From: an uncultured Acidobacteriota bacterium
GTDB lineage: Bacteria; Acidobacteriota; Thermoanaerobaculia; UBA5066; Gp7-AA6
NCBI GenBank assembly: GCA_963764715.1
Contig: CAVXTP010000006.1
Span: 160,001 to 224,000, forward strand
Length of the DNA stretch: 64,000 nucleotides
Reading direction: 5' to 3'
Program-made: the position numbers and the translations under genes
In this document: positions 1,388 to 32,964 of the stretch, in pieces
Layout: each line of letters begins with the position of its first letter
Position numbering within the stretch: the stretch's first letter is position 1
Notes under the pieces: generated by a model
Database searches by the model: none
Told to the model about the DNA's origin: nothing
What the model saw: only the letters and a program-made list of their open reading frames with translations

Positions 1388-1441
1388 GTCCGGAATCGGA
1401 CAGTCGGGTCCCGAAGCCGAGCATCCGCGCCCGCCCGGATG
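1388..1441 (+). promoter_or_regulatory. Putative upstream activator (bEBP enhancer) sites
   Basis: Perfect inverted repeat GTCCG-GAAT-CGGAC at 1388-1401, a weaker copy at about 1408-1423, and CATCCG-N8-CGGATG at 1422-1441. They lie 70-125 bp upstream of the predicted start site of the sigma54 promoter. Confidence 0.55.
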
Positions 1442-1458
1442 GCACCGCACGACCCTGT

Positions 1459-1471
1459 TTTCAACGACTTA
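1459..1471 (+). promoter_or_regulatory. IHF-like binding site
   Basis: TTTCAACGACTTA has one mismatch to WATCAANNNNTTR and sits between the enhancer and the -24/-12 box. Confidence 0.55.
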
Positions 1472-1485
1472 CGAACGATCGACAC

Positions 1486-1500
1486 TGGCACGCTTCTCGC
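1486..1500 (+). promoter_or_regulatory. Sigma54 (RpoN) -24/-12 promoter
   Basis: TGGCACGCTTCTCGC gives TGGCAC-N5-TCGC with exact GG-N10-GC spacing, 15 nt before the GTG start of the adaptor gene. Confidence 0.75.
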
Positions 1501-1515
1501 CCTTGCAGGCTCAAC

Positions 1516-2775
1516 GTGGACATCATTCGCGAAGACATCTCCGAAAAGAAACGCCGCAAGCGGATCGTCATGGCCGCGGCCGGCGCCGCGGCGATCCTGC
1601 TGATCACCCTCGGCCTGTCGCGCCTGAAGCCGGCCGCTCCGACGGTCGAGAAGAGCACGATCTGGATGGACACGGTCAAGCGCGGCCCGATGCTGCGCCA
1701 GGTCCGGGGCCCGGGCTCGCTCGTCGTCGAGTCGTCCGGAATCCGCGTGCTCTCGGCCCAGACCGACGGCCGCGTCGAGCGCCTCCTGCTCGAGCCCGGC
1801 GCGATCGTGCAGCCGGACACCGTGATCCTCGAGATGTCGAACCCGACGCTCCAGCGCGACGCGCTCGACGCCGAGCAGGCCCTCAAGGCGGGCCAGGCGG
1901 AGCTCGCCAACACGCGGATCAAGATCCAGCGCGACACGCTCGACCAGAAGGCGGCGGCGGCGACGGTCGAGTCGGACTTTCACCAGGCGCAGCTCCAGGC
2001 GCAGACGAACGAAGGCCTCTTCAAGGAAGGGATCGTCGCCTCCCTGACGCTCAAGCTGTCGGAGGTGCGCGCCGAGGAGCTCAAGACGCGCAACGCCCTC
2101 GAGCAGGAGCGGATGGCGATCGCCGAGGATTCGGCGAAGGCGCAGAACGAGGCGGCCGAGGCCCACTTCCAGCAGCTCAAGGTCCAGGCCGACCTGATGC
2201 GCTCGCAGATGGAAGGCCTCAAGGTCCGCGCCGGCATCCCGGGCGTCCTGCAGGAGATCCCGATCCAGGTCGGCCAGCGCGTCACGCCGGGCACCATGCT
2301 CGCCAAGGTCGTCCAGCCGACCAAGCTCAAAGCGCAGCTGAAGATCGCCGAGACGCAGGCCAAGGACGTCGCGATCGGGCAGCCCGCCTCGATCGACACG
2401 CGCAACGGCATCGTCCCGGGCAAGGTTTCGCGCGTCGACCCGTCCTCGCAGAACGGGACGGTCACCGTCGACGTCGCCCTCGAAGGCGAGCTGCCGCTCG
2501 GCGCCCGGCCGGACCTCTCGGTCGACGGGACGATCGAGCTCGACCGGCTGAAGGACGTGCTCTACGTCGGCCGGCCGGCCTTCGGCCAGGAGAAGAGCCT
2601 CGTCGGCCTCTTCCGGGTCGAGGAGGACGGCGACGAGGCGGTCCGCGTCAAGGTCAAGCTCGGCAAGAGCTCGGTCAACACGGTCGAGATCCTCGAGGGT
2701 CTCAAGCCGGGGGACAAGGTGATTCTTTCGGACATGAGCGCGTGGGACGCTCACGACCGCGTACGTTTGAAGTAG
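1516..2775 (+). CDS. Efflux membrane-fusion/periplasmic adaptor protein (HlyD/MacA/YknX-like)
   Basis: N-terminal TM anchor, lipoyl half-motifs ([11 protein letters not shown]; [20 protein letters not shown]), long coiled coil, C-terminal [14 protein letters not shown]. Confidence 0.9.
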
Positions 2776-2786
2776 GGGGAACAGGC

Positions 2787-3536
2787 ATGAGCTCCAACGG
2801 ACATCCGGTCATCAAGCTCGACGGCGTCACGAAGGTCTTCTTCACGGACGAAGTCGAAACGCACGCGCTCTCGGGCGTGCACCTCGAGATCGCCCACGGG
2901 GAGTACGTGTCGATCGCCGGGCCGTCGGGCTGCGGCAAGTCGACGCTGCTCTCGCTGCTCGGCCTGCTCGACTCGCCGACCGAGGGGAAGTACTCGCTGA
3001 ACGGCAAGCCGGCCGAGTCGCTGACGCTCTCCGAGCGCGCGCGGATCCGCAACCGCGAGATCGGATTCATCTTCCAGTCGTTCAACCTGATCGGCGACCT
3101 CTCGGTCTACGAGAACGTCGAGCTGCCCCTGACCTACCGGGGCATGCCCTCGCACGAGCGCAAGAAGCGCGTGCAGGAGTCCCTCGAGAAGGTCGGCATG
3201 GCGCACCGGATGAAGCACTTCCCCTCGCAGCTCTCGGGCGGCCAGCAGCAGCGCGTCGCCGTGGCCCGCGCCATCGCGGGCTCGCCCCTCATCCTCCTCG
3301 CCGACGAGCCCACGGGCAACCTCGACTCGGTCAACGGCGAGGCGGTCATGAACCTGCTCCAGGACCTCCACCGCGCCGGCGCGACGATCTGCATGGTCAC
3401 GCACGACCCGCGCTTCGCCAAGCACGCGGGCCGGACGATCCACCTGTTCGACGGCCGCGTGGTGGAAGAGGAGAAGGGCGAGGAGCGGGCGCACAGCGAG
3501 GAAGAGCTCAAGGAAAGCGGCTACCGGATGAACTGA
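2787..3536 (+). CDS. ABC transporter ATP-binding protein (MacB/LolD-type), ATPase 1
   Basis: Walker [44 protein letters not shown] 2787 follows a GGGGGA RBS. Confidence 0.95.
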
Positions 3537-5965
3537 TGCGGACCCTCACGCAGGATCTCCGCTACGCCCTGCGCGGGATCGCCCGCAACCCCGGTTTCAC
3601 GGCCGTCGCCGTCCTGACGCTCGCGCTCGGCATCGGCGCGAATGCCGCGATCTTCTCGATGCTGAACGCGATGGTGCTGCGGCCGATGCCGGGGGTCGCC
3701 GACCCGGGCCGGCTGGTCTGGATCACCCACCTCGAGGGCGGTCGCACCGCGCGCGTCTCGTACCCGGACGCGCTCGACTATCGCGACCACGCCGACGTCT
3801 TCGCCGGTCTCGCGGCCGTCGACAACGTCCCGGTGCACGTCGCCACGGCGGATGCGACCGAGCGTGTCGGGGCGCAGATCGCGGGCGGCGACTACTTCTC
3901 GGTCCTCGGCCTGGTGCCGGCCGCCGGAAGGTTCTTCACGGCCGAGGACGACCGCGCCCGCCGCGCCGCGATCGTCATCTCCGCGGGCCTCTGGCAGCGC
4001 CGGTTCGGCGGAGATCCCGCCGCCGTCGGCCGGGCGGTGACGATCAGCGGCCGCAGCTTCACCATCCTCGGCGTCGCGCCGCCGGGGTTCGCCGGGCTCG
4101 ACCTCGACTCTCCGCCCGACGTGTTTCTTCCGGTGGAGACGTGGCTCTCGGGCACCGACCGGGCGGCGAGCCTGAACTCGCGCCGGTCCGCGCGCTTCCG
4201 CGTGCTCGCCCGGCTCGCGCCGGGGGCGTCCCTCGCCGCAGCGGACGCGGCCGTCAAGGCGACGGCGGCCGCCAACTCGCGCCTGCGCCCGGCGGACCTG
4301 CGCGGCACGACGGCCTCCGTCGAAACGCCCCGGGGATGGGTCCCGCCGGGGCACATGTACGAGATCCTGCCGATGGCGGGGCTGGCGCTGGCGGCGACCG
4401 GCCTCGTGCTCGTGATCGCCGCGGCCAACGTCGCCAACCTGCTGCTCGGCCGCGCCGCGCGGAGGCGGCGGGAGATGGGGATCCGTCTCGCCATCGGCGC
4501 CTCGCGCGGGCGCATCCTGCGTCAGCTTCTGACCGAGAGCGTGCTCCTCGCCGGCCTCGGCGCGGCCGGCGGCCTGCTGCTGTCGTCGTGGCTCCTCGAC
4601 CTGCTGCTTTCCCATTTCGACGTGCCGCCGCTCCTTCGGCCGGTCCTCGACGGGGGCATGCTCGCCTACGGCGTCGTCGTCGCGGTCGCGACCGGGATCC
4701 TCTTCGGCCTCGCTCCGGCCTGGAACGCCGCCCGTCCGGATGTCCTCGCCGCCCTCAGGGGCGGTTCGAGCTCCGGCGCCGGGCGCCCGGGCCAGAGGCT
4801 GCAGGGCGCGCTCGTCGTCGTGCAGGTCGCCCTCTCGCTCGTCCTGCTCGCCGCCGGCGGCCTGCTGCTGCGGAGCCTCGCGAAGGCGGCCGCGGTCCCC
4901 GCGGGCTTCGACCGGGAGTCGGCGGGCGAGGTCGTCACGCTGTCGTTCGACCCGGTGACCCAGGGCTACCCGCCGGCGCGCGCGCAGCAGTTTCGCGAGG
5001 CGATGCTCGAGCGGGCGAAGAGCCTGCCCGGCGTGCGCGCCGCCGCTCTCACCGAGCTGCTGCCGCTCTCCAACCGCGCCATCGCCGACGACTTCGCGCC
5101 GGAGGGCGGGGCGGCCGAAGCGCGGGAGCAGATCTTCTTCACCACCGTCTCCCCCGGCTACTTCGCGACGCTCGGGATCCCGCTCGTCGCCGGACGCGAC
5201 TTCACGCCGGAAGATCGCTCGGGCGCGCCGGCCGTCGCGGTCGTCAACGAGACGCTCGCCCGGCGCTTCTGGCCCGGCGTCAGCCCGCTCGGCCGGCGCT
5301 TCGCGACCATCGACCGCCCCGGCGAGGGCTTCGAGGTCGTGGGCGTCGCCCGGGACGGCAAGTACCTGACCCTCACGGAACCGGCGCGTCCGTTCGCGTA
5401 CTTCCCCCTCGCCCAGGGGGCGCACCTGAACGAGAACACCCTGCTCGTCCGCGGCTCGGGCGGCCGGGCGCTCTCGGCCGCCGTGCGGGCCGCGGCCCGC
5501 GGCCTCGACCCGACGCTGCCGCTCTTCCAGGCGGAGACGCTCGAGGAGGCGCTGCGCCGGAGCACCGCCGGCCGGCGGCAGGGAACGCTTCTCCTCGCCA
5601 CGTTCGGCGCGCTCGCCCTGCTGCTCGCGGCCGTCGGCCTCTACGGCGTCGTGGCCTTCGCGGTCGGCGAGCGCCGGCGCGAGATCGCGGTCCGCATGGC
5701 GATCGGAGCGGCGCGCCGAGACATCGTTTCGCTCTTCGTGGGCCGGGGCGCGCGGCTCGCCGGGCTCGGTGTCGCGATCGGCCTGGCCCTGGCCGCGGCG
5801 ATCACCCGCCTCCTCTCGGGCATGCTCTTCGGCGTCACGCCTCTCGACGTCACGACGCTCGCGGCCGTGTCGGCCCTCCTCGCCGCGGTCGCGCTCGCGG
5901 CGAGCGCGCTGCCCGCGCGGCGCGCGGCGCGAATCGATCCGGCCTCGGCGCTGCGAAACGACTGA
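3536..5965 (+). CDS. Duplicated MacB/FtsX-type ABC permease (ADOP family), copy 1
   Basis: [20 protein letters not shown]-terminus, [21 protein letters not shown], second [13 protein letters not shown]-terminal [13 protein letters not shown]. Confidence 0.92.
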
Positions 5966-5975
5966 AGGAGCACCC

Positions 5976-8462
5976 ATGACGACGCTCTTGCAGGATCTCC
6001 GTTACGCCCTTCGCTGGCTCGCCCGCAACCCCGGATTCGCGGCCGTGGCGATCCTGACGCTCGCTCTCGGCATCGGGACCGTCACGACGATCTTCTCGAT
6101 CCTCGACGCCGCGGTGCTCCGCCCGCTCCCGTACCGCGACCCGGACGCCCTCGTGAAGCTCTCGATCACGCACCAGGAAGGCAACACCCCGGCCGAGCCC
6201 TTCGCCTGGTCCTACCCCAAGTTCGAGAGCCTGCGCCGGCACGCGCGGTCCTTCGCCGCGGTCGCCGCGTTTTCCTCCGCCGACCTGAACCTCACGGGAG
6301 TCGCCGAGCCCGAGCGCCTGAGCGGGGAGATCGTCTCTGCGTCGTACTTCCCGGTCCTGGGCGTCCCGGCGGCGCTCGGCCGCACGTTCACGGCCGAGGA
6401 GGACGGGGCGCCGGGAGCGCATCCGGTCTGCCTGATCTCGCACGGCCTCTGGCAGCGCCGGTTCGGCGGTTCGGCCTCCGTCCTCGGCCGGGCGATCTCG
6501 GTCAACCGCCGGCCGCTGACGGTCGTCGGCGTGCTTCCCGAGCGCTTCGCGGGACTCGGCGGCGACGCCGAGATCTGGGTGCCGATGGCCATGGCCTCCG
6601 CGTTCATCTACCCCGAAATCCTGACCGAGGACGGCAACCACTGGCACGACGTCGTCGGGCGGCTCAAGCCCGGCGTCTCGGCCGCCGCGGCCGACGCCGA
6701 GATGCGGGTCGTCGGAAAGCAGATCGCCGACGAGCATCCGATGGAAGTCCGCGGCGCCGTCTGGGGAGCGGCGGCGGCGCCGTTGAACGACAGCCGCGTC
6801 GACCCGGCCCTGCGGCGCTCGGTGCTCGTGCTCTTCGGCGCGGTCACCTTCGTCCTGCTCATCGCGTGCGCCAACGTCGCGGCGCTCCTTCTCGCCCGGG
6901 CGTCGTCCCGCGGACGGGAGGTGGCGATCCGCCTCGCGATCGGCGCGGGCCGCCGCCGCATCGTCCGCCAGATGCTGACCGAGAGCGTCGTCCTCGGGGT
7001 CGCCGGAGGCGTCGCGGGCGTCCTGCTGTCCCTCTGGGGCGTCGAAGCCCTGTCCCGGATCGAGCGCCTTTCGGGGGTGGGCGACCGGTCGTTCCTGTTC
7101 CGCTTCACCGCCGTCGAGCTCGACGCCCGCGTCCTCGTCTTCGCGCTCGCCGTTTCGCTTCTGACGGGCCTCGTCTTCGGAATGGCTCCGGCTCTCCACG
7201 CCACCCGGGCGGACCTCGGCGCCGCGCTCAAGGAAGGCGGCGCCGGGGCCGTCGCCGGAGCGGGCCGGCGGCGTCTGTCGCTGCGCGGCATCCTCGTTCC
7301 TTTGCAGGTCGCTCTCGCGCTCGTGCTGCTCGTGGGCGCCGGCCTCCTGACGCGCACTCTCGGCCGGCTGTCCGGCTACGACGCCGGCTTCCGGCCGGAG
7401 GGCGTTCTCACGCTGCGTTTCGATCCTTCCGGCGTGCTCGACGGCGACCGTTCGCAGGCGGCCGTGTTCCGCCGCGCGATGCTCGAGCGTCTCGCCGCCC
7501 TTCCGGGAGTCACGAGCGCGGCGACCGGGCGCACCCCGCCGGTCTCCTCCCGCAACATGATCGCCGTCATCCGCCAGGTCGACGACCGCCGCTTCTCGAT
7601 CGAAGAGGGCGCGACGCAGATCGGGATCCACGACGTCAGCCCGGACTACTTCCGCACGCTGTCGATCCCGATCCGCAGCGGTCGGGCCTTCACCGGGGAG
7701 GACCGCGAGGGCTCCCGGAGGGTCGTCGTCGTCTCCGAAACGACGGCCAAGCGCCTGTGGCCCGGCCAGGACCCGATCGGACGCCGGCTCTCGGCGACGA
7801 CGTTCTACTTCGGCGACGGCCAGACCGCCGAGGTCGTGGGCGTCGCGGGCGACGTGCTCTACGGACGGCCCGGCGAACGCCAGGCGCTCGACCTCTACTA
7901 CCCCTCGTTCCAGGGCGGGCTCCCCTGGGGCACGCTTTTCGTCAAGACCTCCGGCGATCCGGCGGCCCTCGCTCCGGCCGTTCGCCGCGAGATCAAGGCG
8001 CTCGCCCCGAACCTCCCGGTGTTCGACGTCGCGACCATGGAGACCCGGGCCGCGCGGACTTTCTCGCGCGAGCGGTTCGGCGCGGGGCTGCTGGGACTTC
8101 TCGCCGGCATCGCCCTCTTCCTCGCCTCCGTCGGCATCTACGGGCTCGTGGCCGAGACCGTCTCGGCGCGAAGCCGCGAGATCGGGCTTCGCATGGCGCT
8201 CGGCGCGCGGCCGGGGGACATTCTCCGGGGCGTCCTGCAGCACGGCCTGACGCTCGCGGTCGCGGGTCTGGCCGCGGGTCTCGCCGCCGCGTTCGCCCTC
8301 TCGCGGCTGCTCTCGAGCCTCCTCTTCGGCGTCGCCGCGAGCGACCTGGCGACGTACGCCGCCGTCTCCGCGATCCTGCTCGCGGTCGCCGCCGCCGCGA
8401 GCTGGATCCCGGCGCGCCGCGCCACGCGCATCGACCCGATGCTGGCGCTGCGGAGGGAGTGA
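5976..8462 (+). CDS. ADOP-family ABC permease, copy 2
   Basis: AAGGAG RBS then [13 protein letters not shown]. Same duplicated FtsX/MacB motifs. Confidence 0.92.
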   Translation: MTTLLQDLRYALRWLARNPGFAAVAILTLALGIGTVTTIFSILDAAVLRPLPYRDPDALVKLSITHQEGNTPAEPFAWSYPKFESLRRHARSFAAVAAFSSADLNLTGVAEPERLSGEIVSASYFPVLGVPAALGRTFTAEEDGAPGAHPVCLISHGLWQRRFGGSASVLGRAISVNRRPLTVVGVLPERFAGLGGDAEIWVPMAMASAFIYPEILTEDGNHWHDVVGRLKPGVSAAAADAEMRVVGKQIADEHPMEVRGAVWGAAAAPLNDSRVDPALRRSVLVLFGAVTFVLLIACANVAALLLARASSRGREVAIRLAIGAGRRRIVRQMLTESVVLGVAGGVAGVLLSLWGVEALSRIERLSGVGDRSFLFRFTAVELDARVLVFALAVSLLTGLVFGMAPALHATRADLGAALKEGGAGAVAGAGRRRLSLRGILVPLQVALALVLLVGAGLLTRTLGRLSGYDAGFRPEGVLTLRFDPSGVLDGDRSQAAVFRRAMLERLAALPGVTSAATGRTPPVSSRNMIAVIRQVDDRRFSIEEGATQIGIHDVSPDYFRTLSIPIRSGRAFTGEDREGSRRVVVVSETTAKRLWPGQDPIGRRLSATTFYFGDGQTAEVVGVAGDVLYGRPGERQALDLYYPSFQGGLPWGTLFVKTSGDPAALAPAVRREIKALAPNLPVFDVATMETRAARTFSRERFGAGLLGLLAGIALFLASVGIYGLVAETVSARSREIGLRMALGARPGDILRGVLQHGLTLAVAGLAAGLAAAFALSRLLSSLLFGVAASDLATYAAVSAILLAVAAAASWIPARRATRIDPMLALRRE

Positions 8463-8533
8463 CGATGCTCTTCGACGTCCGTCACGCGTTCCGCGCGCTC
8501 CGGCGCTCGCCGGGAAACGAGGCCAACCGATGA
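8459..8533 (+). pseudogene. Remnant of a deleted ADOP permease (N-terminal stub)
   Basis: (V/M)[23 protein letters not shown] matches the permease N-terminal motif LxDxRxAxRxLxxSPG and then ends. It overlaps the upstream stop (GTGA) and the downstream start (ATGA). Confidence 0.75.
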
Positions 8534-10962: not shown

Positions 10963-10972
10963 GAGGGACCGC

Positions 10973-13363: not shown

Positions 13364-13365
13364 GC

Positions 13366-13425
13366 ATGCGGACCCTCTTCCAGGACGCCCCTGACGGTCC
13401 CATGCGAACGCTGAGAACGGAGTGA
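13366..13425 (+). pseudogene. Remnant of a deleted ADOP permease (N-terminus fused to C-terminus)
   Basis: MRTLFQD-APDG-PMRTLRTE*. The first 7 residues match permease starts and the last 8 match permease ends (PMxALRxE*). Confidence 0.8.
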
Positions 13426-13429
13426 CACG

Positions 13430-15847: not shown

Positions 15848-15852
15848 GCGGG

Positions 15853-18297
15853 ATGAACAGCCTCGCCCGCCAGATTCGCTACACGCTTCGGTCGCTCCGA
15901 AAGAGCCCGGGCTTCTCGGCCGCGGCGATCGGGACCCTCGCCCTCGGAATCGCCGCGACGACGACCATCTTCTCGCTCCTCCACTCGGTCGTTCTCGCGC
16001 CGCTCCCCTACCGCGAACCCGAACGGCTGACGGTCCTCTGGGAAGTCGGGCCGGACGGCCGGCTCTGGCGCCCGGCACCGACCTCCTATCGCGCGTGGCG
16101 CGAGCACGCCCGCTCCTTCGAGAGCCTCGCCGCCTTCCAGGGCGCGACATGGACGCTGACGGGCGAGGGCGAGCCGGTCTCGCTCCATGGCAGCCGGGTC
16201 ACGCCCGAATACTTCGATCTTCTCGGCGTTCTCCCGGTCCTCGGCCGCGCCTTCCGGCCGGAGGAAGCGAAATCGGGCGCCGCGCCGGTCGTCCTTCTCG
16301 GGCACGAGCTCTGGGTCTCGCGCTTCGGCGCGGACCCCGGAATCCTCGGCCGCACGGTGACACTCGAGGGCACGCCCCGCACCATCGTCGGCGTGATGCC
16401 GCCCGCACCTTACCCGACCGCGGCCCTGACGATCGGCCGCATCGCCTTCGCTCCAGGAGGGCCGGAGTTCTTCGCTCCCGCCGCGCTCGAGGGCGCAGGA
16501 GCGCCGCGGGGCCGCAGCTACGTGCTCGGCGTCCTCGGGCGCTTGAAGCCGGGCGTGACCCTGGCGGCGGCCCGGCAGGAGATGACGGCGCTCGCCCGGA
16601 GACTCGCGGCCGAGGACTCGAGCAACCGGGGCGCGGACACGCGGCTTGCGCCGCTCGATCTCGAGACGCAGGGTGCGATGCGGCCCGCTCTCTGGCTCCT
16701 CTTCGGGGCGGTGATCTTCGTGCTCGCGATCGGCTGCGCCAACGTGGCGAGCCTCCAGCTCGCGCGGGCCGAGGCCCGCGGGCGGGAAATCGCGGTCCGC
16801 TCGGCCCTCGGCGCCGGACGCGGACGGATCGCCGCCCAGTTCCTGGTCGAGGCGCTCGTTCTCTCCGCGGCGGCCGGCGCCCTGGGAGTTCTCCTCACGT
16901 ACTGGGGGCTGCCGCTGCTCGTCACCCTGGTGCCTCCGGACGTCCCGAGGCTCGGGCAGGTGCGGGTCCACCAGGGGGTCCTGGCCTTCGCGGTCGCCGT
17001 CTCGCTGGTGGTGGGCGTGCTCTCCGGCCTCGTGCCGGCGCTGACCGCGGCGCGCCGGGGCGCCGCGCGCGGGCTGTCCGAGGTGGGCCGGGGCGCGACC
17101 GGCACTCGCGGAGCGCGACGCTCCCTGCGGCTGCTGGTTCTCGGCGAAACCGCGGTCGCCGTGCTGCTCGCCTCGGGCGCGCTGCTGCTGACGCAGAGCT
17201 TCCTGCGGCTCTCTCGGGTCGACCCGGGGTTCCGCGCCGCCAACGTCACGGTCGCGCGATTTTCCCTGCCGCGCTCGCGCTACCAGACCTGGGGCGACGT
17301 CGCCCGCTTCGAGGACGCCCTGCTCTCGAGAGCGCGGGCCCTGCCCGGAGTCTCCTCGGCCGCCCTGGCCTACAACCATCCGCTCGAGGCCCAGTGGATC
17401 GGCGGCGGCGAGGCCGAGCCGGGCACCGGCGATCCCGGCGGCGAACGGTCTCCGTCCTGGTTTCGAGCCGTCAGCGACGGCTACTTTCGCTCGGTCGGTG
17501 TGTCGCTTCTCGAGGGGCGCGACTTCTCCCCTACCGATGACGCGCGGCACCCGGCGGTCGCGATCGTCAACCGGGCCTTCGCCCGCGCGAACTTCCGGGA
17601 CGGCCGCGCCCTGGGGCGCTTCCTGGAGTCCGGCGACGGCGTCTCCTGGTGGGGCGAGGGCCTGCCGACCCGCTTCGAGATCGTCGGCATCGCGGCCGAC
17701 GAGAAGTTCCTGGGCCTCGACAAGGGGACCGCGCCCGCCTACTACCTCACCGTCCGCCAGTTTCCGATCGAGGACATGCAGCTCGTGGTCCGGGGCTCCG
17801 CGTCTGCGCCGGACCTGCGCCGGGCGTTCCACGACCTGGACCCGGCCCTTCCGATCCAGGGCGTTTCGACGATGACGGGCGTCTACGCCGAGGCCCTGGC
17901 GCCCTCGCGCCTGAACATGCAGCTCATGCTGACCTTCGGCGGTCTCGCCGTGGGTCTCGCGATGGTCGGCGTCTACGGGCTGCTTTCCTACGTCGTCGGG
18001 CTGCGCCGCCGCGAGCTCGGCATCCGGATCGCGCTCGGCGCCCGGTCGCCGCAGGTGCTCGGCACCGTGCTCGCGGAGACGGCGCGGCTGGCGCTCGGAG
18101 GAATCGCTCTGGGACTCGCCGGCGCGCTCGCTCTGGCCCCGCTTCTCTCGCGCGTCCTCTTCGGCGTCGCCGCGACCGACCCCGCGACCCTCGCGGCGGC
18201 CGCCCTGGCCCTCGGGGTCGTGATGTTCCTGGCGAGCGGCCTGCCGGCACGGCGCGCCGCCCGCATCTCCCCCAGCGAAGTGTTGAAAGGCGAATGA
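15853..18297 (+). CDS. ADOP-family ABC permease, copy 6
   Basis: [21 protein letters not shown]...CANVASL...[17 protein letters not shown]. Confidence 0.9.
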   Translation: MNSLARQIRYTLRSLRKSPGFSAAAIGTLALGIAATTTIFSLLHSVVLAPLPYREPERLTVLWEVGPDGRLWRPAPTSYRAWREHARSFESLAAFQGATWTLTGEGEPVSLHGSRVTPEYFDLLGVLPVLGRAFRPEEAKSGAAPVVLLGHELWVSRFGADPGILGRTVTLEGTPRTIVGVMPPAPYPTAALTIGRIAFAPGGPEFFAPAALEGAGAPRGRSYVLGVLGRLKPGVTLAAARQEMTALARRLAAEDSSNRGADTRLAPLDLETQGAMRPALWLLFGAVIFVLAIGCANVASLQLARAEARGREIAVRSALGAGRGRIAAQFLVEALVLSAAAGALGVLLTYWGLPLLVTLVPPDVPRLGQVRVHQGVLAFAVAVSLVVGVLSGLVPALTAARRGAARGLSEVGRGATGTRGARRSLRLLVLGETAVAVLLASGALLLTQSFLRLSRVDPGFRAANVTVARFSLPRSRYQTWGDVARFEDALLSRARALPGVSSAALAYNHPLEAQWIGGGEAEPGTGDPGGERSPSWFRAVSDGYFRSVGVSLLEGRDFSPTDDARHPAVAIVNRAFARANFRDGRALGRFLESGDGVSWWGEGLPTRFEIVGIAADEKFLGLDKGTAPAYYLTVRQFPIEDMQLVVRGSASAPDLRRAFHDLDPALPIQGVSTMTGVYAEALAPSRLNMQLMLTFGGLAVGLAMVGVYGLLSYVVGLRRRELGIRIALGARSPQVLGTVLAETARLALGGIALGLAGALALAPLLSRVLFGVAATDPATLAAAALALGVVMFLASGLPARRAARISPSEVLKGE

Positions 18298-18968
18298 ACA
18301 CGATGATTCAGCTCACCAGCGTCGAAAAAGCCGTCGCAACCCGCGCCGGCCAGACCTTTCTCCTCCGCCGCATCGACCTCACGATCGCCGAGGGCGAGTT
18401 CGTCACGATCATGGGACCGTCGGGCGCCGGCAAGTCGACCCTGCTCTCGATCCTCGGCATGCTCGACCACGACTGGTCGGGCGAGTACCGACTCCTCGAG
18501 CACGACGTCCATCGCCTGAAGCCGCGCGAGCGCATCGAGCTCAACAAGAAGTACGTCGGCTTCGTCTTCCAGCAGTACCACCTGCTCGACAACCTCACGG
18601 TGGCCGAGAACCTCGACATCCCGCTGTCCTACCGCAACGTGAAGGGCTCGGAACGGGCCTCGACGGTGGCCGACACGCTCGACCGCTTCCAGATCGTCGG
18701 CAAGAAAGATCTCTTCCCAAACCAGCTCTCGGGCGGCCAGCAGCAGCTCGTCGGCGTGGCGCGCGCGCTCATCGCGAAGCCGAAGCTGCTCCTCGCCGAC
18801 GAGCCGACCGGGAACCTCCACTCCGACCAGGGCCGCGAGATCATGCGCCTCTTCAAGAAGCTCAACGACGAGGGCACGACGATCGTGCAGGTCACGCACT
18901 CCGAGGAGAACGCGACCTACGGCAACCGCATCGTCCGGCTGCGCGACGGCTGGATCGTCAACGACTGA
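18294..18968 (+). CDS. ABC transporter ATP-binding protein (MacB/LolD-type), ATPase 2
   Basis: [43 protein letters not shown] overlap with permease 6. Confidence 0.93.
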   Translation: MNTMIQLTSVEKAVATRAGQTFLLRRIDLTIAEGEFVTIMGPSGAGKSTLLSILGMLDHDWSGEYRLLEHDVHRLKPRERIELNKKYVGFVFQQYHLLDNLTVAENLDIPLSYRNVKGSERASTVADTLDRFQIVGKKDLFPNQLSGGQQQLVGVARALIAKPKLLLADEPTGNLHSDQGREIMRLFKKLNDEGTTIVQVTHSEENATYGNRIVRLRDGWIVND

Positions 18969-18983
18969 GGATCGAGGAGCACG

Positions 18984-21413: not shown

Positions 21414-21422
21414 GGTGACGAG

Positions 21423-26389: not shown

Positions 26390-26410
26390 AGATCGAAAAA
26401 GGAGACCTCC

Positions 26411-28897
26411 ATGTCGACCCTCGGACAGGACCTGCGTTACGCGCTCCGCACCCTCCGCAAGAGTCCTGGCTTCGCGGCCGTCGCGATCGGCACGCTCGCC
26501 CTGGGGATCGGGGCGAACGCCGCCATCTTCTCGGTCGTGAACACCGTGCTCCTGAAGCCCCTGCCCTTCGACCGGGCCGGTGAGCTCGTCCGCGTGACGT
26601 CGGACTTCACGCGCCGCGGCACCACCGACGTCGGCCTGTCGGCGCCCGAGCTCTTCGACTACCGCGACCGGTCGGGCGTCTTTTCGGCGATCTCCGGGCT
26701 CTACCCCATCACGGCCAACGTCACCGGCGGCGACCGCCCCGAGCGGGTCGAGACGCTGCTCGTCGACGTCGATTACTTCGACATCCTCGGCGTCAAGCCG
26801 CAGGTGGGCCGCCTCTTCGAGAAGAAGGACTACGACCCCGGCATCGCCGACTTCGTGGTCCTCTCGGACGGTTTCTGGCGGCGCCGGTTCGGAGCGGATC
26901 CGGGCGTCATCGGCAAGCCCCTGCGGATCGACGACGACCTCTGCACGATCCTGGGCGTGCTCCCTCCGGGCTTCCGCCATCCCGGGCGAGTGATCGAAAC
27001 GGAGGTCGAAGTCTGGGCCCCGTCGGGCTGGCTCGGCCCTCCCTTCCAGGGACCCAACCGTCGCGGCTACTTCCTTCAGGGCGCGCTCGGTCGGCTGAAG
27101 CCCGGCGTGACGCCGGCGGCGGCGCAGGCGCGCCTCGACGCCCTCGCCGGGGAGCTGCGCCGCGAGTACGGGAGCGACTACCCCGAGAACGACGGCTGGG
27201 CGCCGCGCCTCGTTCCCCTCCAGGACGATCTCGTGGGCGGCGTCCGCCCCGCGCTGATGGTGCTGCTCGCGGCCGTCGGCCTCGTCCTCCTGATCGGGTG
27301 CGCGAACGTCGCGAACCTCCAGCTCGCGCGCGCCTCGGCCCGGCGCCGCGAAATCGCCGTCCGCCAGGCGCTCGGCGCGTCGCGCGCGCGCCTCATCCGG
27401 CAGTTGCTGACCGAGAGTCTCGTCGTCGCGCTGCTGGGCGGCGCCCTCGGACTTCTCCTCGCCGCGTTCGGCGTCGATCTCCTGATGCGGCTCTCGCCGG
27501 CGAGCATCCTCCGGCTTCCCGAGGTGGGCATCGACCGGTCCGTGCTGCTCTTTACCCTCGGCGCCTCCCTGCTCACGGGAATCGTCTTCGGGATCACGCC
27601 CGCCCTTCAGGGCTCCAGCGCCGGCCTCGGCGAGGCGCTCAACGAAGGCTCCCGCGGGGCGTCCGGCCGCCGCGGCAAACGGGTCCGGTCGCTCCTCGTC
27701 GTCACCGAGTTCGCGCTCGCGCTCGTGCTCCTCGTGGGCGCGGGCCTGCTCGTGCGCACGCTGTGGCGGCTGCAGAAGGTCGACGTGGGCTTCCAGCCGA
27801 CGAACGTGACGACCGCCAGCCTCTGGCTCCCGCAGCCCGACATCCGTGAAAACGGGAGGTACAACGAGAGCTCCGCGCAGGCCGCCTTCTACCGCAAGGC
27901 CCTCGAGCGGATCCGGGCATTGCCCGGGGTGGAGGCTGCCGGCGCGACGAGCGTCCCGTTCAACACCCGTCCGTTCACGACGCGGCTCCAGATCGAGGGA
28001 CGCGACCCCGAGCGCGACGGGACCGCCGTGGCCGCCGGCTCGAGCGCTTCGACCGGTTACTTCCGGACCCTCGGCGTTCCCCTCAAGGCCGGGCGCGACT
28101 TCGATGAGCGCGACGCCGAGGGCGGAGAGCCCGTCATGATCGTCAGCGAGACCTTCGCGCGCCGCTTCTTCCCGAGCGAGGACCCGATCGGCAAGCGCCT
28201 TCGCTTTCCGGGCCGCCCGCTGCAGCGCCAGGTCGTGAACGGCGACAAGCCGGCCCCCTGGATGACGATCGTCGGCGTCGTCGGCGACGTGAAGACGGAA
28301 TCGCTCACGCTCGACGGCCGACCGGCCTTCTATCGGCCGCTCCTCCAGGCGTCGAACGCCCTCTTCACCTTCGTGATCCGCGGCGCGTCCCCGCCCTCGA
28401 CGCTCGGCCCGCAGATCGACGCCGCGGTCCGCTCGCTCGACACCGAGTTGCCGGTCTTCGCGGTGCGCACGATGAGCGAGGCCATGGCGGCGACCGTCGA
28501 GGAGCGTCGCTTCGCGATGCAGCTGCTCGCGATCTTCGCCGCCGCCGCGCTCGCCCTCTCGGCCGTCGGCATCTACGGCGTGATCGCCTACGGAGTCGCG
28601 CAGCGCACCCGGGAGATCGGCATCCGCATGGCGCTCGGAGCGCGTCCGTCGGACGTTCGGCGGATGCTGCTCGCGGAGGGCGCGAAGCTCGCCGGCGCCG
28701 GCGTGGCACTCGGGCTCGCCGGGTCGGTCCTGCTGACGCAGGCGATGTCGGCGCTGCTCTACGGCGTCGGCCCCCGCGACCCCATGACCCTGGCGGCCGT
28801 CCCGGCGGTGCTGGCCGCGGTCGCCCTCGCGGCCACGTTCTTCCCGGCCCGACGGGCGAGCCGGGTCGATCCGACGACCGCGCTGCGCGCCGAATAG
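26411..28897 (+). CDS. ADOP-family ABC permease, copy 10
   Basis: [30 protein letters not shown]...VDPTTALRAE. Confidence 0.92.
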   Translation: MSTLGQDLRYALRTLRKSPGFAAVAIGTLALGIGANAAIFSVVNTVLLKPLPFDRAGELVRVTSDFTRRGTTDVGLSAPELFDYRDRSGVFSAISGLYPITANVTGGDRPERVETLLVDVDYFDILGVKPQVGRLFEKKDYDPGIADFVVLSDGFWRRRFGADPGVIGKPLRIDDDLCTILGVLPPGFRHPGRVIETEVEVWAPSGWLGPPFQGPNRRGYFLQGALGRLKPGVTPAAAQARLDALAGELRREYGSDYPENDGWAPRLVPLQDDLVGGVRPALMVLLAAVGLVLLIGCANVANLQLARASARRREIAVRQALGASRARLIRQLLTESLVVALLGGALGLLLAAFGVDLLMRLSPASILRLPEVGIDRSVLLFTLGASLLTGIVFGITPALQGSSAGLGEALNEGSRGASGRRGKRVRSLLVVTEFALALVLLVGAGLLVRTLWRLQKVDVGFQPTNVTTASLWLPQPDIRENGRYNESSAQAAFYRKALERIRALPGVEAAGATSVPFNTRPFTTRLQIEGRDPERDGTAVAAGSSASTGYFRTLGVPLKAGRDFDERDAEGGEPVMIVSETFARRFFPSEDPIGKRLRFPGRPLQRQVVNGDKPAPWMTIVGVVGDVKTESLTLDGRPAFYRPLLQASNALFTFVIRGASPPSTLGPQIDAAVRSLDTELPVFAVRTMSEAMAATVEERRFAMQLLAIFAAAALALSAVGIYGVIAYGVAQRTREIGIRMALGARPSDVRRMLLAEGAKLAGAGVALGLAGSVLLTQAMSALLYGVGPRDPMTLAAVPAVLAAVALAATFFPARRASRVDPTTALRAE

Positions 28898-28905
28898 GGG
28901 CGCGG

Positions 28906-28914
28906 TGGTAGATT
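28906..28914 (+). promoter_or_regulatory. Extended -10 promoter (TGgTAGATT), probably leaderless, for msrB and the two-component genes
   Basis: TGn-TAGATT ends 6 nt before the GTG at 28921 and there is no SD sequence. Confidence 0.45.
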
Positions 28915-28920
28915 CGCGCC

Positions 28921-29328
28921 GTGGTCGCCGAGGATCCCGGCCGGGTCGAGAAGACTCCCGAGGAGTGGCGCGCGGAGCTGACGCCGGAGCAGTACCGCAT
29001 CCTGCGCGAAAAGGGCACCGAGCGCGCCTTCACCGGCAGGTACTGGAATCACCACGCGCCCGGGACGTACGCCTGCGCCGCCTGCGGGAATCCCCTCTTC
29101 GATTCCGGGTCGAAGTTCGAGTCGGGGACGGGCTGGCCGAGCTTCACGACGCCGGCCTCCCCGGCGAGCGTGAAGACCCACGAGGACGCCAGCCTCTTCC
29201 TCTCCCGTACGGAGGTCCTGTGCCGGCGCTGCGACTCGCATCTCGGCCACGTCTTCGACGACGGGCCGGAACCGACGGGCCTGCGGTACTGCATGAACTC
29301 CGCCGCGCTCGACTTCCGGCCCCGGTGA
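28921..29328 (+). CDS. msrB: Peptide-methionine (R)-S-oxide reductase
   Basis: GTERAFTG, CAACG, SGTGWPSF, CRRCDSHLGHVFDDGP, RYCMNS. Confidence 0.95.
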   Translation: MVAEDPGRVEKTPEEWRAELTPEQYRILREKGTERAFTGRYWNHHAPGTYACAACGNPLFDSGSKFESGTGWPSFTTPASPASVKTHEDASLFLSRTEVLCRRCDSHLGHVFDDGPEPTGLRYCMNSAALDFRPR

Positions 29329-29350
29329 CCCGGCTCCGGTCGCCGCTGCC

Positions 29351-30706
29351 ATGAACCGTGCGCCGCGCGTCCTGATCGCCGACGACCAGCGCGACGTCCT
29401 GGAGGCCCTGCGCCTGCTACTCAAGGGCGAAGGTCTCGAGTGCGAGACGGCGAGCTCGCCCTCCGGAGTCCTCGCCGCGCTCGAGTCGCGCGAGCGGGAC
29501 GCGGCGCTGATCGACCTGAACTACACGCGCGACACGACCTCGGGGCAGGAGGGCCTCGACCTGCTGGCGAAGATCCAGGAGATCGACCCGACCCTGCCGG
29601 TGATCGTCATGACGGCCTGGGGCACCGTCGACCTCGCCGTCGAGGCGATGCGCAAGGGCGCCCGCGACTTCGTGCAGAAGCCGTGGGACAACGCCCGGCT
29701 GCTGACGACGCTCCGCACGCAGATCGCCCTCGGCCAGGCCCTGCGCGTCGGCCAGCGGCTCGAGGCCGAGAACCGGATCCTGCGCCACGAGGGCTTCCCG
29801 TCGATGGTCGCGGCCTCTCCGGCGATGCGCCCGGTCCTCGACGTCGTCGCGCGCGTCGGCCCGTCGGACGCCAACGTCCTGATCACCGGGGACAACGGCA
29901 CCGGGAAGACGCTCGTGGCCCGGGCGCTCCATGCCGCCTCGCCCCGCGCCGCGCGCCCCTTCCTGACGCTGAACGCCGGCGGCATCTCCGAGGGCGTGTT
30001 CGAGAGCGAGCTCTTCGGCCACGTCAAGGGCGCATTCACCGACGCCCGCGCCGACCGCGTCGGCCGCTTCGAGCTCGCCGACGGCGGCACCCTCTTCCTC
30101 GACGAGATCGGCAACGTCCCCCTCTCGCAGCAGGGCAAGCTCCTGCGCGTCCTCGAGACCGGGGAGTTCGAGCGCGTGGGTTCCTCCCGGACGCGGCGCT
30201 GCGACGTGCGGATCCTCTCGGCGACCAACGCCAACCTCGGCGCCGAGGTCGCCTCCGGGCGGTTCCGCCAGGACCTCCTCTTCCGTCTGAACACGATCGA
30301 GATCCACGTGCCCTCGCTCGCCGAGCGCCGCGAGGACATTCCACTCCTCGCCCGGCAGTTCCTGAAGAGCCACGCCGAGCGCTATCGCAAGAACGTCGCG
30401 GGCTTCGAGCCCCCGGCGATGGAGGCGCTGCTCGCCCACCGCTGGCCGGGCAACGTGCGCGAGCTCGACCACGCCGTCGAGCGGGCCGTCCTGATGTCCG
30501 GGGGCGGCGCGATCCGCGCCGGCGACCTCGGCCTGAAGCGCGGGGCCGACGGGGCGCGGCTCGAGGACCTGTCGCTCGAGGAAGTCGAGAGCCTCCTCGT
30601 GCGCAAGGCCATGGACCGGTTCGGCGGCAACGTGAGCCAGGCGGCGAAGGCCCTGGGCCTTTCGCGCAGCGCCCTCTATCGCCGGCTCGAAAAGCACGGA
30701 CAATGA
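29351..30706 (+). CDS. Sigma54-dependent response regulator (NtrC family: REC-AAA+-Fis HTH)
   Basis: Receiver domain (LIADD...IDLN), GDNGTGKT, ESELFGHVKGAFTDA, LFLDEIG, WPGNVREL, GNVSQAAKALGLSRSALYRRL. Confidence 0.95.
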   Translation: MNRAPRVLIADDQRDVLEALRLLLKGEGLECETASSPSGVLAALESRERDAALIDLNYTRDTTSGQEGLDLLAKIQEIDPTLPVIVMTAWGTVDLAVEAMRKGARDFVQKPWDNARLLTTLRTQIALGQALRVGQRLEAENRILRHEGFPSMVAASPAMRPVLDVVARVGPSDANVLITGDNGTGKTLVARALHAASPRAARPFLTLNAGGISEGVFESELFGHVKGAFTDARADRVGRFELADGGTLFLDEIGNVPLSQQGKLLRVLETGEFERVGSSRTRRCDVRILSATNANLGAEVASGRFRQDLLFRLNTIEIHVPSLAERREDIPLLARQFLKSHAERYRKNVAGFEPPAMEALLAHRWPGNVRELDHAVERAVLMSGGGAIRAGDLGLKRGADGARLEDLSLEEVESLLVRKAMDRFGGNVSQAAKALGLSRSALYRRLEKHGQ

Positions 30707-30710
30707 CTCC

Positions 30711-32042
30711 ATGGCCGCCCGCGCGCTGACGCACGAACGGCGGATCCTGCTCCTGGCGCTCTTCGCCGCGCTGCCCGCGATGGCGACGGCCCTCGTCCTG
30801 CTCTGGACCGGCGACTTCACTCCGAAGCTCCGCTGGACGCTGACCACGGTCCTCGTCCTCGCCTTCCTCGCGTTCACGCAGGCGCTGCGCGAGCGCGTGG
30901 TGCGCCCGCTCCAGACGGTCTCGAACCTGCTCGCGGCCATGCGGGAGGAGGACTTCTCGATCCGCGCGCGCGGCGCGCGTCCGGACGACCCGCTCGGCGA
31001 GGTGCTCCTCGAGGTCAACGCCCTGGCGGCGACGCTCCGGGAGCAACGCCTCGGCGCACTCGAGGCCACGGCGCTGCTATCGAAGGTCATGGCGGAGATC
31101 GACGTCGCGGTGTTCGCGTTCGACGAGCGCGGCGAGCTGCAGCTCGTCAACCGGTTCGGCGAGACGCTGCTCGGCCAGCCCGAGCCGCGGCTGCGCGGGC
31201 GGCGCGCCGAGGAGGTCGGCCTCGCCGCGTTTCTCGTCGACGGCGCGCCCCAGATCCGGGAGGCCGCGTTCCCCGGGCGGTCCGGGCGGTGGGAGATCCG
31301 GACGAGCACGTTCCGCCAGGGCGGCGCCCCCCACCGGCTGCTCGTCCTCGCCGACGTCAGCCGCCCACTGCGCGAGGAAGAGCGACAGGCGTGGCAGCGG
31401 CTCATCCGCGTGCTCGGACACGAGCTCAACAACTCGCTCGCCCCGATCCAGTCGATCGCCGGCAGCCTGCAGCGGCTCGCGAGCCAGAGCGAGCCGCCGG
31501 CCGACTGGCGCGACGATTTGCGCCGGGGCCTCTCGGTCATCGCCTCCCGCGCGGAGGCGCTCTCGCGCTTCACGTCGGCGTACGCCCGGCTCGCCCGGCT
31601 CCCGCCGCCCTCGCCGGCGCCGGTCGACGTGGGCAGCCTCCTCGCCCGGGTCGCGAGCCTCGAGCCGCGCCTGCCGGTCGGGGTCATTCCGGGGCCGTCC
31701 ATGACGGTCCAGGCCGACGCCGACCAGCTCGAGCAGCTCCTCATCAATCTCGTGCGCAACGCCGCCGACGCGGCGATCGAGACCCGGGGAGGCGTCGCCC
31801 TCGGGTGGAAGCGCGGGGCGCGCCAGGTCGAGATCTGGGTGGCCGACGACGGCCCCGGCCTCCCGACGACGACCAACCTCTTCGTGCCGTTCTTCACCAC
31901 GAAGCCCGGCGGCTCGGGGATCGGCCTCGTGCTCTCGCGCCAGATCGCCGAGGCCCACGGCGGGAGCCTCTCGCTCGAGAACCGGCGCGGCCATCACGGC
32001 TCGATCGCGCGCCTGCGCCTTCCGCTCGGCGCGGCCGCTTGA
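30711..32042 (+). CDS. Sensor histidine kinase (2 TM with short loop, HAMP/PAS-like region, HisKA, HATPase)
   Basis: H-box HELNNSL, N-box LINLVRNA, DDGPG, PFFTTK, GSGIGL. Confidence 0.92.
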   Translation: MAARALTHERRILLLALFAALPAMATALVLLWTGDFTPKLRWTLTTVLVLAFLAFTQALRERVVRPLQTVSNLLAAMREEDFSIRARGARPDDPLGEVLLEVNALAATLREQRLGALEATALLSKVMAEIDVAVFAFDERGELQLVNRFGETLLGQPEPRLRGRRAEEVGLAAFLVDGAPQIREAAFPGRSGRWEIRTSTFRQGGAPHRLLVLADVSRPLREEERQAWQRLIRVLGHELNNSLAPIQSIAGSLQRLASQSEPPADWRDDLRRGLSVIASRAEALSRFTSAYARLARLPPPSPAPVDVGSLLARVASLEPRLPVGVIPGPSMTVQADADQLEQLLINLVRNAADAAIETRGGVALGWKRGARQVEIWVADDGPGLPTTTNLFVPFFTTKPGGSGIGLVLSRQIAEAHGGSLSLENRRGHHGSIARLRLPLGAAA

Positions 32043-32937: not shown

Positions 32938-32964
32938 AGTCCGCGGTCGAAAAGGAGGTCTCCC

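Follow-up and report, generated by a model that had tools for sequence, protein, structure and literature searches.

The stretch of DNA analysed here (64,000 nt of contig CAVXTP010000006.1, assembly GCA_963764715.1, from an uncultured soil bacterium of the Acidobacteriota; hereafter the window, with a G+C content of about 73%) carries on its forward strand, at positions 1516-32042, a run of 16 genes about 30.5 kb long. As annotated with Pfam and NCBIfam, these genes encode, in this order, a membrane fusion protein (MFP) adaptor, a stand-alone ABC ATPase (ATPase 1), six permeases of the ADOP family (P1-P6), a second stand-alone ABC ATPase (ATPase 2), four further ADOP permeases (P7-P10), a methionine-R-sulfoxide reductase (msrB), a sigma-54 activator (bacterial enhancer-binding protein, bEBP) and a histidine kinase (Table 1). 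Taken together, the data presented below make it fairly probable that this array is a sigma-54-controlled operon encoding a MacAB-like type VII ABC machine of the cell envelope, in which one motor works with many permeases.

The genes are tightly packed. The 15 junctions measure, in order, 11, -1, 10, 67, 10, 66, 5, -4, 15, 9, -4, 21, 23, 22 and 4 nt, i.e. 13 of them are 23 nt or shorter and three are overlaps, and Shine-Dalgarno-like purine runs are found at several of them. No sigma-70-like promoters were found in positions 1-36000 of the window, and no terminator-like site lies between genes of the array, all four such sites of 1-36000 being located inside genes. A first-pass annotation of the window, made from the sequence alone, had described a co-directional run with mostly small gaps and the gene order given above, and this description was borne out. 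Some of its details had to be corrected: position 1388, where it let the array begin, is not the start of a gene, being the first base of an enhancer-like box, and it is the adaptor that opens the run at 1516; ten permeases do belong to the array, but the eleventh one of the window (P11) lies outside it. The msrB gene is real, but it is read from 28921; the open reading frame 28905-29354, which had been taken for msrB, has no Pfam or NCBIfam family match.

Table 1. Position, strand and supporting evidence of the features discussed in the text.
Feature	Position	Strand	Evidence or remark
Enhancer-like box GTCCGGAATCGGACA	1388-1402	+	Conserved alignment block; about 85-100 nt upstream of the promoter
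IHF-like block TTTTCAACGACTTA (TTTTCAA-N-GACTTA)	1458-1471	+	Conserved; lies between box and promoter
Sigma-54 type -24/-12 promoter TGGCACGCTTCTCGC (TGGCACG-N4-TCGC)	1486-1500	+	Window scan
MFP adaptor	1516-2775	+	HlyD_3/HlyD_D23 (Pfam); TIGR01730, 111.1 bits vs cut-off 94.9
ATPase 1, stand-alone MacB/LolD-type ABC ATPase	2787-3536	+	ABC_tran
P1, ADOP permease, 809 aa	3536-5965	+	TIGR03434, 835 bits; 2x MacB_PCD, 2x FtsX
P2, ADOP permease, 828 aa	5976-8462	+	TIGR03434, 929 bits
ADOP 5'-end relic, reads MLFDVRHAFRALRRSPG..., out of frame with P3	8465-8529	+	Comparison with P1-P10 N-termini
P3, ADOP permease, 810 aa	8530-10962	+	TIGR03434, 869 bits
P4, ADOP permease, 796 aa	10973-13363	+	TIGR03434, 882 bits
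ADOP 5'-end relic, reads MRTLFQD..., stop at end	13366-13429	+	First 12 nt = start of P1
P5, ADOP permease, 805 aa	13430-15847	+	TIGR03434, 949 bits; structure modelled
P6, ADOP permease, 814 aa	15853-18297	+	TIGR03434, 814 bits
ATPase 2, stand-alone MacB-type ABC ATPase	18294-18968	+	Pfam, NCBIfam; motifs intact
P7, ADOP permease, 809 aa	18984-21413	+	TIGR03434, 912 bits
P8, ADOP permease, 819 aa	21423-23882	+	TIGR03434, 871 bits
P9, ADOP permease, 836 aa	23879-26389	+	TIGR03434, 898 bits
P10, ADOP permease, 828 aa	26411-28897	+	TIGR03434, 966 bits
msrB (methionine-R-sulfoxide reductase)	28921-29328	+	SelR, E = 7e-53
Sigma-54 activator (bEBP): receiver, AAA+, HTH_8	29351-30706	+	Pfam
Histidine kinase	30711-32042	+	HATPase_c, E = 1e-17
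P11, eleventh ADOP, outside the array	40311-42974	-	TIGR03434, 925 bits; NF038403; N-terminal perm_prefix_1
PadR-family regulator, directly upstream of P11	42996-43340	-	TIGR03433, 160 bits vs 101.8

Permeases, adaptor and ATPases

ADOP corresponds to the NCBIfam model TIGR03434, whose curated cut-off is 622.3 bits. All ten permeases of the array score above it (813-966 bits, model positions 1-803); all ten frames are intact and cover the full length of the family model, and each protein contains two MacB_PCD and two FtsX stretches (Pfam). It should be noted that the word "orphan" in the family name designates permeases without an adjacent ABC ATPase gene. The ten array genes do not share this feature, which comes from the name and not from the family model, in that two ATPases flank them.

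Pairwise identity among the ten permeases is 36-46%, and to judge from this divergence they are old paralogs. Conservation is uneven along the chain: the N-terminus together with the first transmembrane (TM) helix is the best-conserved segment (mean identity 67%), the other membrane segments are 45-59% identical, and the two periplasmic domains reach a mean of 34%. The earlier claim that the permeases share TM and terminal motifs and have very different periplasmic domains was right as to the direction of the difference; however, these domains are still homologous MacB_PCD domains, and not other folds.

P5 was modelled with AlphaFold on the basis of 19 sequences, taken from the window and from G016, a relative belonging to a sister family; the model reached a mean pLDDT of 85.8 and a pTM of 0.80. 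The predicted structure has an N-terminal helix, eight TM helices and two mixed alpha/beta periplasmic domains carried on long helices. In its 4-TM unit the periplasmic domain is placed between TM1 and TM2, with stalk helices and with a coupling helix between TM2 and TM3, and the short helices in the TM2-TM3 and TM6-TM7 loops occupy the location of the coupling helices of MacB-type proteins. The two coupling-helix regions of the permeases are alike in their invariant columns; a sequence-pattern search for the coupling helices in the permeases gave no match. A Foldseek search with the P5 model returned YbbP (9ge6, E = 4e-21) as the first match, and then MacB, LolCDE, BceAB and HrtBA, with a probability of 1.00. 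By sequence, the closest solved structure is MacB (5lil, E = 7e-13), while the NCBIfam model of MacB (NF007826) gives 70-221 bits against a cut-off of 966. The P5 model suggests that each ADOP is a single chain which, with its eight TM helices, mimics the MacB dimer. By analogy with type VII ABC proteins, such a chain may act by mechanotransmission, without transport across the inner membrane.

The adaptor has one N-terminal TM helix and a long coiled-coil segment; its nearest solved structure is MacA (4dk0), and it is the sole gene of its type in the 4.36 Mb genome. All catalytic motifs are intact in ATPase 1, and likewise in ATPase 2, which is 43% identical to it. The best NCBIfam matches of ATPase 1 are DarD, the nucleotide-binding domain of MacB, and LolD, all of them under the equivalog cut-offs. 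Seven genes for outer-membrane factors (OMFs) are present in the genome, all on other contigs, and at least three of these are near other ATPase or FtsX genes. As a separate observation on the envelope, a BamA-like Omp85 protein with five POTRA repeats, a marker of a diderm envelope, is encoded at 49062-52187 (-).

The array does not contain all the ADOPs of the genome. A tblastn search with the permeases of the window detected 22 ADOP genes, of which 20 pass the TIGR03434 cut-off. ABC ATPases adjoin only the ten of the array, the other 12 or so being located away from any ATPase, so that ATPase 1 and ATPase 2 are the only ATPases that adjoin any ADOP in this genome. Six of the scattered ADOPs, P11 among them, lie directly after a PadR gene (TIGR03433); these PadR-ADOP pairs represent another way in which this permease family is regulated. 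The perm_prefix_1 domain of P11 had no hit in the ten array permeases. Orphan and array ADOPs share a highly conserved N-terminal cytoplasmic motif and belong to one family. In a tree of 57 ADOPs, the scattered members of this genome interleave with those of the array; the tree consists of deep paralog lineages, with orthologs common to several genomes, and the array blocks are not clades. The reverse strand of the window also encodes, at 36544-39102, a molybdopterin-binding oxidoreductase subunit.

Upstream region and regulatory genes

The -24/-12 element upstream of the adaptor was the sole match in the window to TGGCAC-N5-TTGC when up to one mismatch was allowed. The chance expectation is 1.44 matches per 64 kb on both strands, so that the informative part is the placement of the match. 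In three members of the same genus (G002, G006 and G011), CTGGCACG-N-TTCTCGCCC is found at the same 15 nt before the same GTG start, with diverged sequence around it, and in the two genomes examined from a sister family (f3) TGGCAC-N5-TTGT is present about 30 nt before the ATG of the adaptor.

Two further blocks are conserved along with this element, and all three are kept in the four genus members examined. The enhancer-like box reads GTCCGGAATCG(A/G)ACA in the alignment of these four members; it occurs as a single copy in the genome at up to one mismatch to the form of the relatives, and may be where the sigma-54 activator encoded by the operon binds. The block that follows resembles an IHF site. 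Read in order, the region would comprise an enhancer, then an IHF-like site and finally a sigma-54 promoter, with activator binding and a transcription start predicted at the corresponding positions.

The activator has the domains Response_reg (E = 7e-22), Sigma54_activat (E = 1e-62) and HTH_8 (E = 1e-13) of Pfam. Its loop motif, near residue 226, is GAFTDA and not GAFTGA. The same variant is found in 25 of the 28 motif matches of related loci, across two phyla, and the ten other motif matches in the genome read GAFTGA, GSFTGA, GAFSGA or GAYTGA. According to hydropathy and sequence, the two TM helices of the kinase are separated by a loop of about ten residues, which leaves no periplasmic sensor domain; its signal would therefore be perceived within the membrane or the cytoplasm, or by way of the transporter. 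Its HATPase_c match is clear, and those to HAMP, PAS and HisKA are weak, falling below the Pfam cut-offs. As the genes of the regulators come last in the run, induction would reinforce itself; together with the single conserved sigma-54 promoter, this position agrees with the idea of one feedback loop, already put forward in the first-pass annotation.

The surroundings of the array deserve a brief description. A gene for an AraC-family regulator (DUF6597 and HTH_18; 32047-33411, +) begins 4 nt past the stop of the kinase and is followed by a DUF6265 gene; the two may or may not be part of the array transcript. They also trail the array in G002, and had no match in the stretches fetched from four other relatives. 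On the other side, 411-1364 (+) encodes a secreted protein with a signal-peptide-like N-terminus and about six tandem repeats of about 38 aa (DDLVAMRIHG..PEFIRELK.LGY), which is without a Pfam or NCBIfam match. Its homologs are found directly upstream of the adaptor, sometimes in two copies, in several relatives labelled as Thermoanaerobaculia or Acidobacteriota.

Permease turnover and distribution of the core genes

For comparison, homologous loci were fetched from five relatives, and the closer relatives (L series) came from a named collection. Several of these assemblies carry frameshifts, which makes pseudogene calls in them unsafe. In three of the four genus members, ATPase 1 is 92-97% identical (G011 gave no full-length match), and the range is 92-100% when L011-L013 are considered together with these three genomes; ATPase 2 is 88-91% identical. 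The adaptor is about 75% identical where intact, and is frameshifted in G002; the activator and the kinase show about 80% identity in G006, and lower or partial matches in G002 and G011. Permease orthologs, on the other hand, are only 55-78% identical within the genus, and many slots in the relatives hold non-orthologous permeases whose best match is at 40-47%. The msrB gene occupies the same position in G002, G006, G011 and L018, and is absent from that position in G016; no TM helix was detected in its product by a hydropathy scan.

The same turnover is visible at closer range. L011 is collinear for P1-P4, with 99% identity for the adaptor, 100% for ATPase 1 and 91-96% for P1-P4; an apparent extra permease in this locus was ruled out as an artefact of high-scoring segment pairs split by frameshifts. 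In L012, ATPase 1 is also 100% identical and P1, P2 and P3 are retained at 88, 83 and 73%, and then the P4 slot is occupied by a non-orthologous permease. L018 has two permeases between the ATPases and none after them, whereas G016 is composed of adaptor, ATPase 1, twelve permeases, ATPase 2, activator and kinase. Within one order, therefore, the size of the array is 2 (L018), about 9 (G006), 10 (here) or 12 (G016). The first-pass annotation had held an array of fixed content to speak against a modular one, and the content does vary between relatives, from 2 to 12 permeases.

The ratio of nonsynonymous to synonymous substitution rates (dN/dS), estimated by NG86 against L011-L013, was 0.00-0.07 for ATPase 1, 0.04-0.14 for the adaptor, 0.12-0.22 for the permeases gene-wide and 0.09-0.31 for their periplasmic domains. 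The permeases are under purifying selection, which is looser than that on the motor; with the values found, diversifying selection on the periplasmic domains is unsupported at this resolution. Against L011, the closest relative, dS is 0.09 for the adaptor and 0.41 for P2; this difference of about four times among neighbouring genes hints at recombination inside the array. In addition, the two relics that occupy the long gaps before P3 and P5 are probably scars of deleted permease genes, and they suggest that the conserved 5' ends are the places where the array recombines.

Co-occurrence of the genes was profiled over 101 genomes drawn across the class, counting as ADOP hits those with E of 1e-150 or better and scoring at most eight candidates per genome. 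ADOP hits were present in 42 genomes, in 34 of which they were above the family cut-off. The best match to ATPase 1 was at least 66% identical in 40 of these 42 genomes and in none of the 59 without ADOP hits, 15 of which do have ATPase-1 matches, at 52-57%. In genomes with one or two ADOPs (e.g. G022, G081, G093 and G104) the ATPase-1 ortholog is located directly beside an ADOP. An ATPase-2 ortholog, one per genome, was detected in 20 of the 101 genomes, each of which has at least seven ADOP hits. If the unpublished genome G024, which is positive for all three proteins, is excluded, the three counts become 39/41, 0/59 and 19/100. In a separate tally of relatives, which includes the unpublished genome G018, 17 of 21 had ADOPs.

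These comparisons bear on how the two ATPases may be used. The possibility that each of them serves the block of permeases downstream of it is ruled out by G016 and L018, in which all twelve and both permeases, respectively, precede ATPase 2; moreover, the two permease blocks are not clades in the tree. An obligate heterodimer of ATPase 1 and ATPase 2 is weakened, because ATPase 2 is missing from 4 of the 24 ADOP-rich genomes and from all 18 low-ADOP genomes, and further by the intact motifs of both ATPases and by the likeness of the coupling-helix regions of the permeases.

On a wider scale, at least 573 relatives of the adaptor were confirmed in a species-representative genome collection. 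The best 80 of these, 54-99% identical, are labelled as Thermoanaerobaculia (the closest), Terriglobia, Blastocatellia, Vicinamibacterales and other Acidobacteriota, and also as Chthoniobacterales, Opitutae and other Verrucomicrobiota. The description of ADOPs as an Acidobacteria family, given in the first-pass annotation, was therefore too narrow, as systems with this adaptor also occur in Verrucomicrobiota-labelled loci. Within 10 kb of the adaptor, an ATPase-1 ortholog was found in 67 of these 80 loci (38 of the 42 with full flanks), at least one ADOP in 60 (38/42), an ATPase-2 ortholog in 28 (16/42) and the activator in 22 (12/42). The regulator pair travels with the core of adaptor and ATPase across two phyla. 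Four of the 42 full-flank loci are without an ADOP nearby; in one of them, L077, the adaptor is accompanied only by the two ATPases, the activator and the kinase. The conservation of this frame while its permease content turns over, the co-occurrence of ATPase 1 with ADOPs, the existence of core-only loci and the lack of other ADOP-adjoining ATPases in this genome give comparative support to the core of the earlier proposal, that of modular, interchangeable permeases on shared hardware.

Interpretation and comparison with known systems

In the machine that we propose, each ADOP would bind, at its two coupling helices, a pair of stand-alone ATPase subunits drawn from ATPase 1, ATPase 2 or both, and would also dock the single MacA-like adaptor. 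Binding of ATP would be converted by mechanotransmission into movements of the periplasmic domains, as in the MacB, LolCDE and YbbAP families, and a periplasmic or outer-leaflet substrate would be pushed outward. Considering the type of adaptor, the exit would probably be a TolC-like outer-membrane duct encoded elsewhere in the genome, and induction would feed back on itself through the operon's own kinase and sigma-54 activator. The periplasmic domains are where the ten permeases diverge most, and the permeases are therefore likely to differ in substrate. The data show which genes are present, how the permease folds in the model, that the promoter and the frame are conserved while the permeases turn over, and that ATPase 1 occurs together with ADOPs; in drawing this picture we infer the co-transcription of the array, the physical sharing of the ATPases and the adaptor, the direction of efflux and any substrate.

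Several observations weigh against this picture. The -12 element is one base off the consensus TTGC, being TCGC here and TTGT in the sister family f3, and the GTG start of the adaptor is only about 15 nt past it; so short a distance implies either a nearly leaderless message or another start codon, possibly the ATG at 1570, and third-position changes among the relatives suggest that the codons close to the GTG are translated. No OMF (OEP) gene was found in the array locus, and an OMF-like match was near the adaptor in only two of the 80 related loci in a tblastn search of low sensitivity with the genome's own OMFs. High conservation is expected of any ABC ATPase. As for the profile, G105 and G108 have ADOP hits but gave no ATPase-1 ortholog with the query used; an ATPase-2 ortholog is lacking in G029, G051, G074 and G110 (best matches 44-48%), in spite of their 7-8 ADOP hits, and in each of the 18 genomes with 1-3 ADOP hits. 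Furthermore, the line at 66% was drawn after the gap in the identity values had been seen, and related genomes are non-independent samples.

The same data can be read in other ways. The permeases might form a Bce-like module for sensing or protection: their main role would be that of co-sensors signalling the substrate load to the kinase, and they might also shield an envelope target instead of exporting anything. This reading, which overlaps partly with the one proposed above, is in our opinion rather unlikely. BceS-type kinases sense through their transporter, and the kinase of the array, with its two TM helices, its loop of about ten residues and no periplasmic domain, could do so as well, but its cytoplasmic HAMP- and PAS-like segments could also sense alone. 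In both phyla the regulator pair does accompany the core of adaptor and ATPase, but the response regulator is an NtrC-type sigma-54 activator and not of the OmpR type. Likewise, BceAB is found among the structural matches of P5, at ranks 17-19, although BceB is a 10-TM protein with a single domain and the array permeases have eight TM helices and two periplasmic domains; and the MacA-like adaptor, with its long coiled coil, points to a duct-coupled pump. Alternatively, the array could be a set of extractors comparable to LolCDE or YbbAP-TesA, each ADOP pulling a lipid, a lipoprotein or a hydrophobic compound from the inner membrane and passing it to a periplasmic partner with no duct involved. 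The conservation of an adaptor of MacA/HlyD architecture together with the core in at least 573 loci and the lack of a conserved periplasmic hydrolase or carrier gene in the frame make this quite unlikely, even if YbbP, described in passages of PMC12646458 as an extractor of hydrophobic compounds, is the best structural match of P5. The missing OMF gene would agree with extraction, but in at least one related locus, L058, an OMF-like gene lies between ATPase 2 and the activator.

It is improbable that we are dealing with mere clustering, i.e. with ten tandem paralogs that happen to lie beside an ordinary MacAB-like system and mostly use other ATPases or none. The family is named for permeases without adjacent ATPases, and about 12 ADOPs of this genome are indeed away from any ATPase, six of them after PadR genes. 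Against this stand the co-occurrence of ATPase 1 and ADOPs (40/42 vs 0/59), the core-only loci, the packing of the genes with overlapping stops and starts, and the single promoter-like signal for the whole run; besides, the paralogs are ancient (36-46% identity) and yet are held in the same frame by relatives. An assembly artefact, caused by collapsed or chimeric repeats, had been mentioned in the first-pass annotation as an outcome that would undo its proposal. High-GC metagenome assemblies can misjoin paralogs, but those of the array are too divergent to collapse, all ten are intact and full-length on the family model, and the same frame is seen in independent assemblies, one of which (L011) is collinear from the adaptor through ATPase 1 to P4 at 91-100% identity, so that the likelihood of an artefact is close to nil.

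If the reading of one motor with many permeases is retained, it is possible, although we put this forward only tentatively, that its range extends beyond the array, in a hub-and-spoke arrangement. One adaptor and one or two ATPase species would serve every ADOP in the cell, both the ten of the array and the approximately twelve scattered ones, including those linked to PadR genes. The permeases would compete for the pool of motors, and the substrate range would depend on which of their genes are switched on. Recombination between neighbouring genes, at their conserved 5' ends, would reshuffle the permease set on a short evolutionary time scale and leave scars of the kind found at 8465-8529 and 13366-13429. 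Were this the case, the powering of a very large family of "orphan" permeases of soil bacteria would have an explanation. The locus and its relatives offer ADOPs a concrete set of partners, which is retained as permeases are exchanged: a single adaptor and ATPase 1, in many cases joined by ATPase 2, under a sigma-54 switch of their own. If the motor is indeed shared, the array would be a broad-range envelope pump, unlike the usual one or two permease genes per ABC system, and would bear on chemical stress or product export in the abundant and hard-to-culture soil Acidobacteriota and Verrucomicrobiota.

In the literature searched, no function was found assigned to ADOPs, nor was a shared-motor model for them found. 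PMC11573002 only counts ADOP genes, the passages of PMC3174227 that were searched do not mention ADOPs, and PMC3914696 contains the sole description of a comparable cluster.

Of the well-characterized systems, MacAB-TolC, a type VII ABC system (PDB 5nik, 5lil, 5gko), shares with the array the FtsX-type 4-TM unit with a periplasmic MacB_PCD, the MacA-like adaptor and the MacB/LolD-type ATPase, and MacB is the closest solved structure to the array permeases by sequence (E = 7e-13) and the second group by fold. Unlike in MacAB, however, the ATPases of the array are separate proteins and the two permease units are fused in one 8-TM chain; in addition, there are ten permease genes per adaptor, two distinct ATPases, sigma-54 two-component control and no OMF gene in the locus. 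In E. coli, tolC is not linked to macAB either.

A fused double-FtsX permease, an adaptor and a stand-alone ATPase are also the components of the darobactin exporter DarBCD (NF038008, NF038010, NF038007). DarD is the top NCBIfam match for both ATPases and DarC the second match for the adaptor, but the scores are far under the equivalog cut-offs (DarD 249 vs 375 bits, DarC 66.7 vs 450, DarB no more than 22 vs 700), and DarBCD has one permease and is part of a peptide biosynthesis cluster. The BceAB-BceRS systems resemble the array in that a type VII ABC transporter is encoded with a kinase without an extracellular sensor domain. They belong to monoderms, have no adaptor, and differ from the array, with its NtrC-type regulator, in the OmpR-type regulator of BceRS.

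In YbbAP-TesA of E. coli (PDB 9ge6-9ge8), as in the ADOP model, the type VII permease is fused and pseudosymmetric and carries two periplasmic domains as well as two coupling helices. According to passages of PMC12646458, YbbP has ten TM helices and binds two copies of a stand-alone ATPase; the array, too, encodes stand-alone ATPases, and the ADOP model differs in having eight TM helices. With the YbbP model NF041854 (cut-off 999 bits), P3 scored 25 bits and the other nine permeases had no match. Moreover, YbbAP comprises one permease and a periplasmic hydrolase partner and no adaptor, and no TesA-like gene was seen in the frame of the array.

A precedent for such a cluster is a 42-kb one of Psychroflexus torquis, which in the passages of PMC3914696 devoted to it contains ten ADOP paralogs (eight in the figure legend) and other transporters, including ATP-binding ones, is highly translated, and has no function assigned. 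As presented in those passages, it differs from the present locus in being a genomic island of a member of the Bacteroidota and in being described only, without a shared-motor model, a regulator or a comparative analysis, and the likeness drawn here is by description. Set beside all these systems, the array is a MacAB-like type VII ABC system, built, in the reading that we favour, as one motor with many permeases, and a comparable cluster has already been described in P. torquis.

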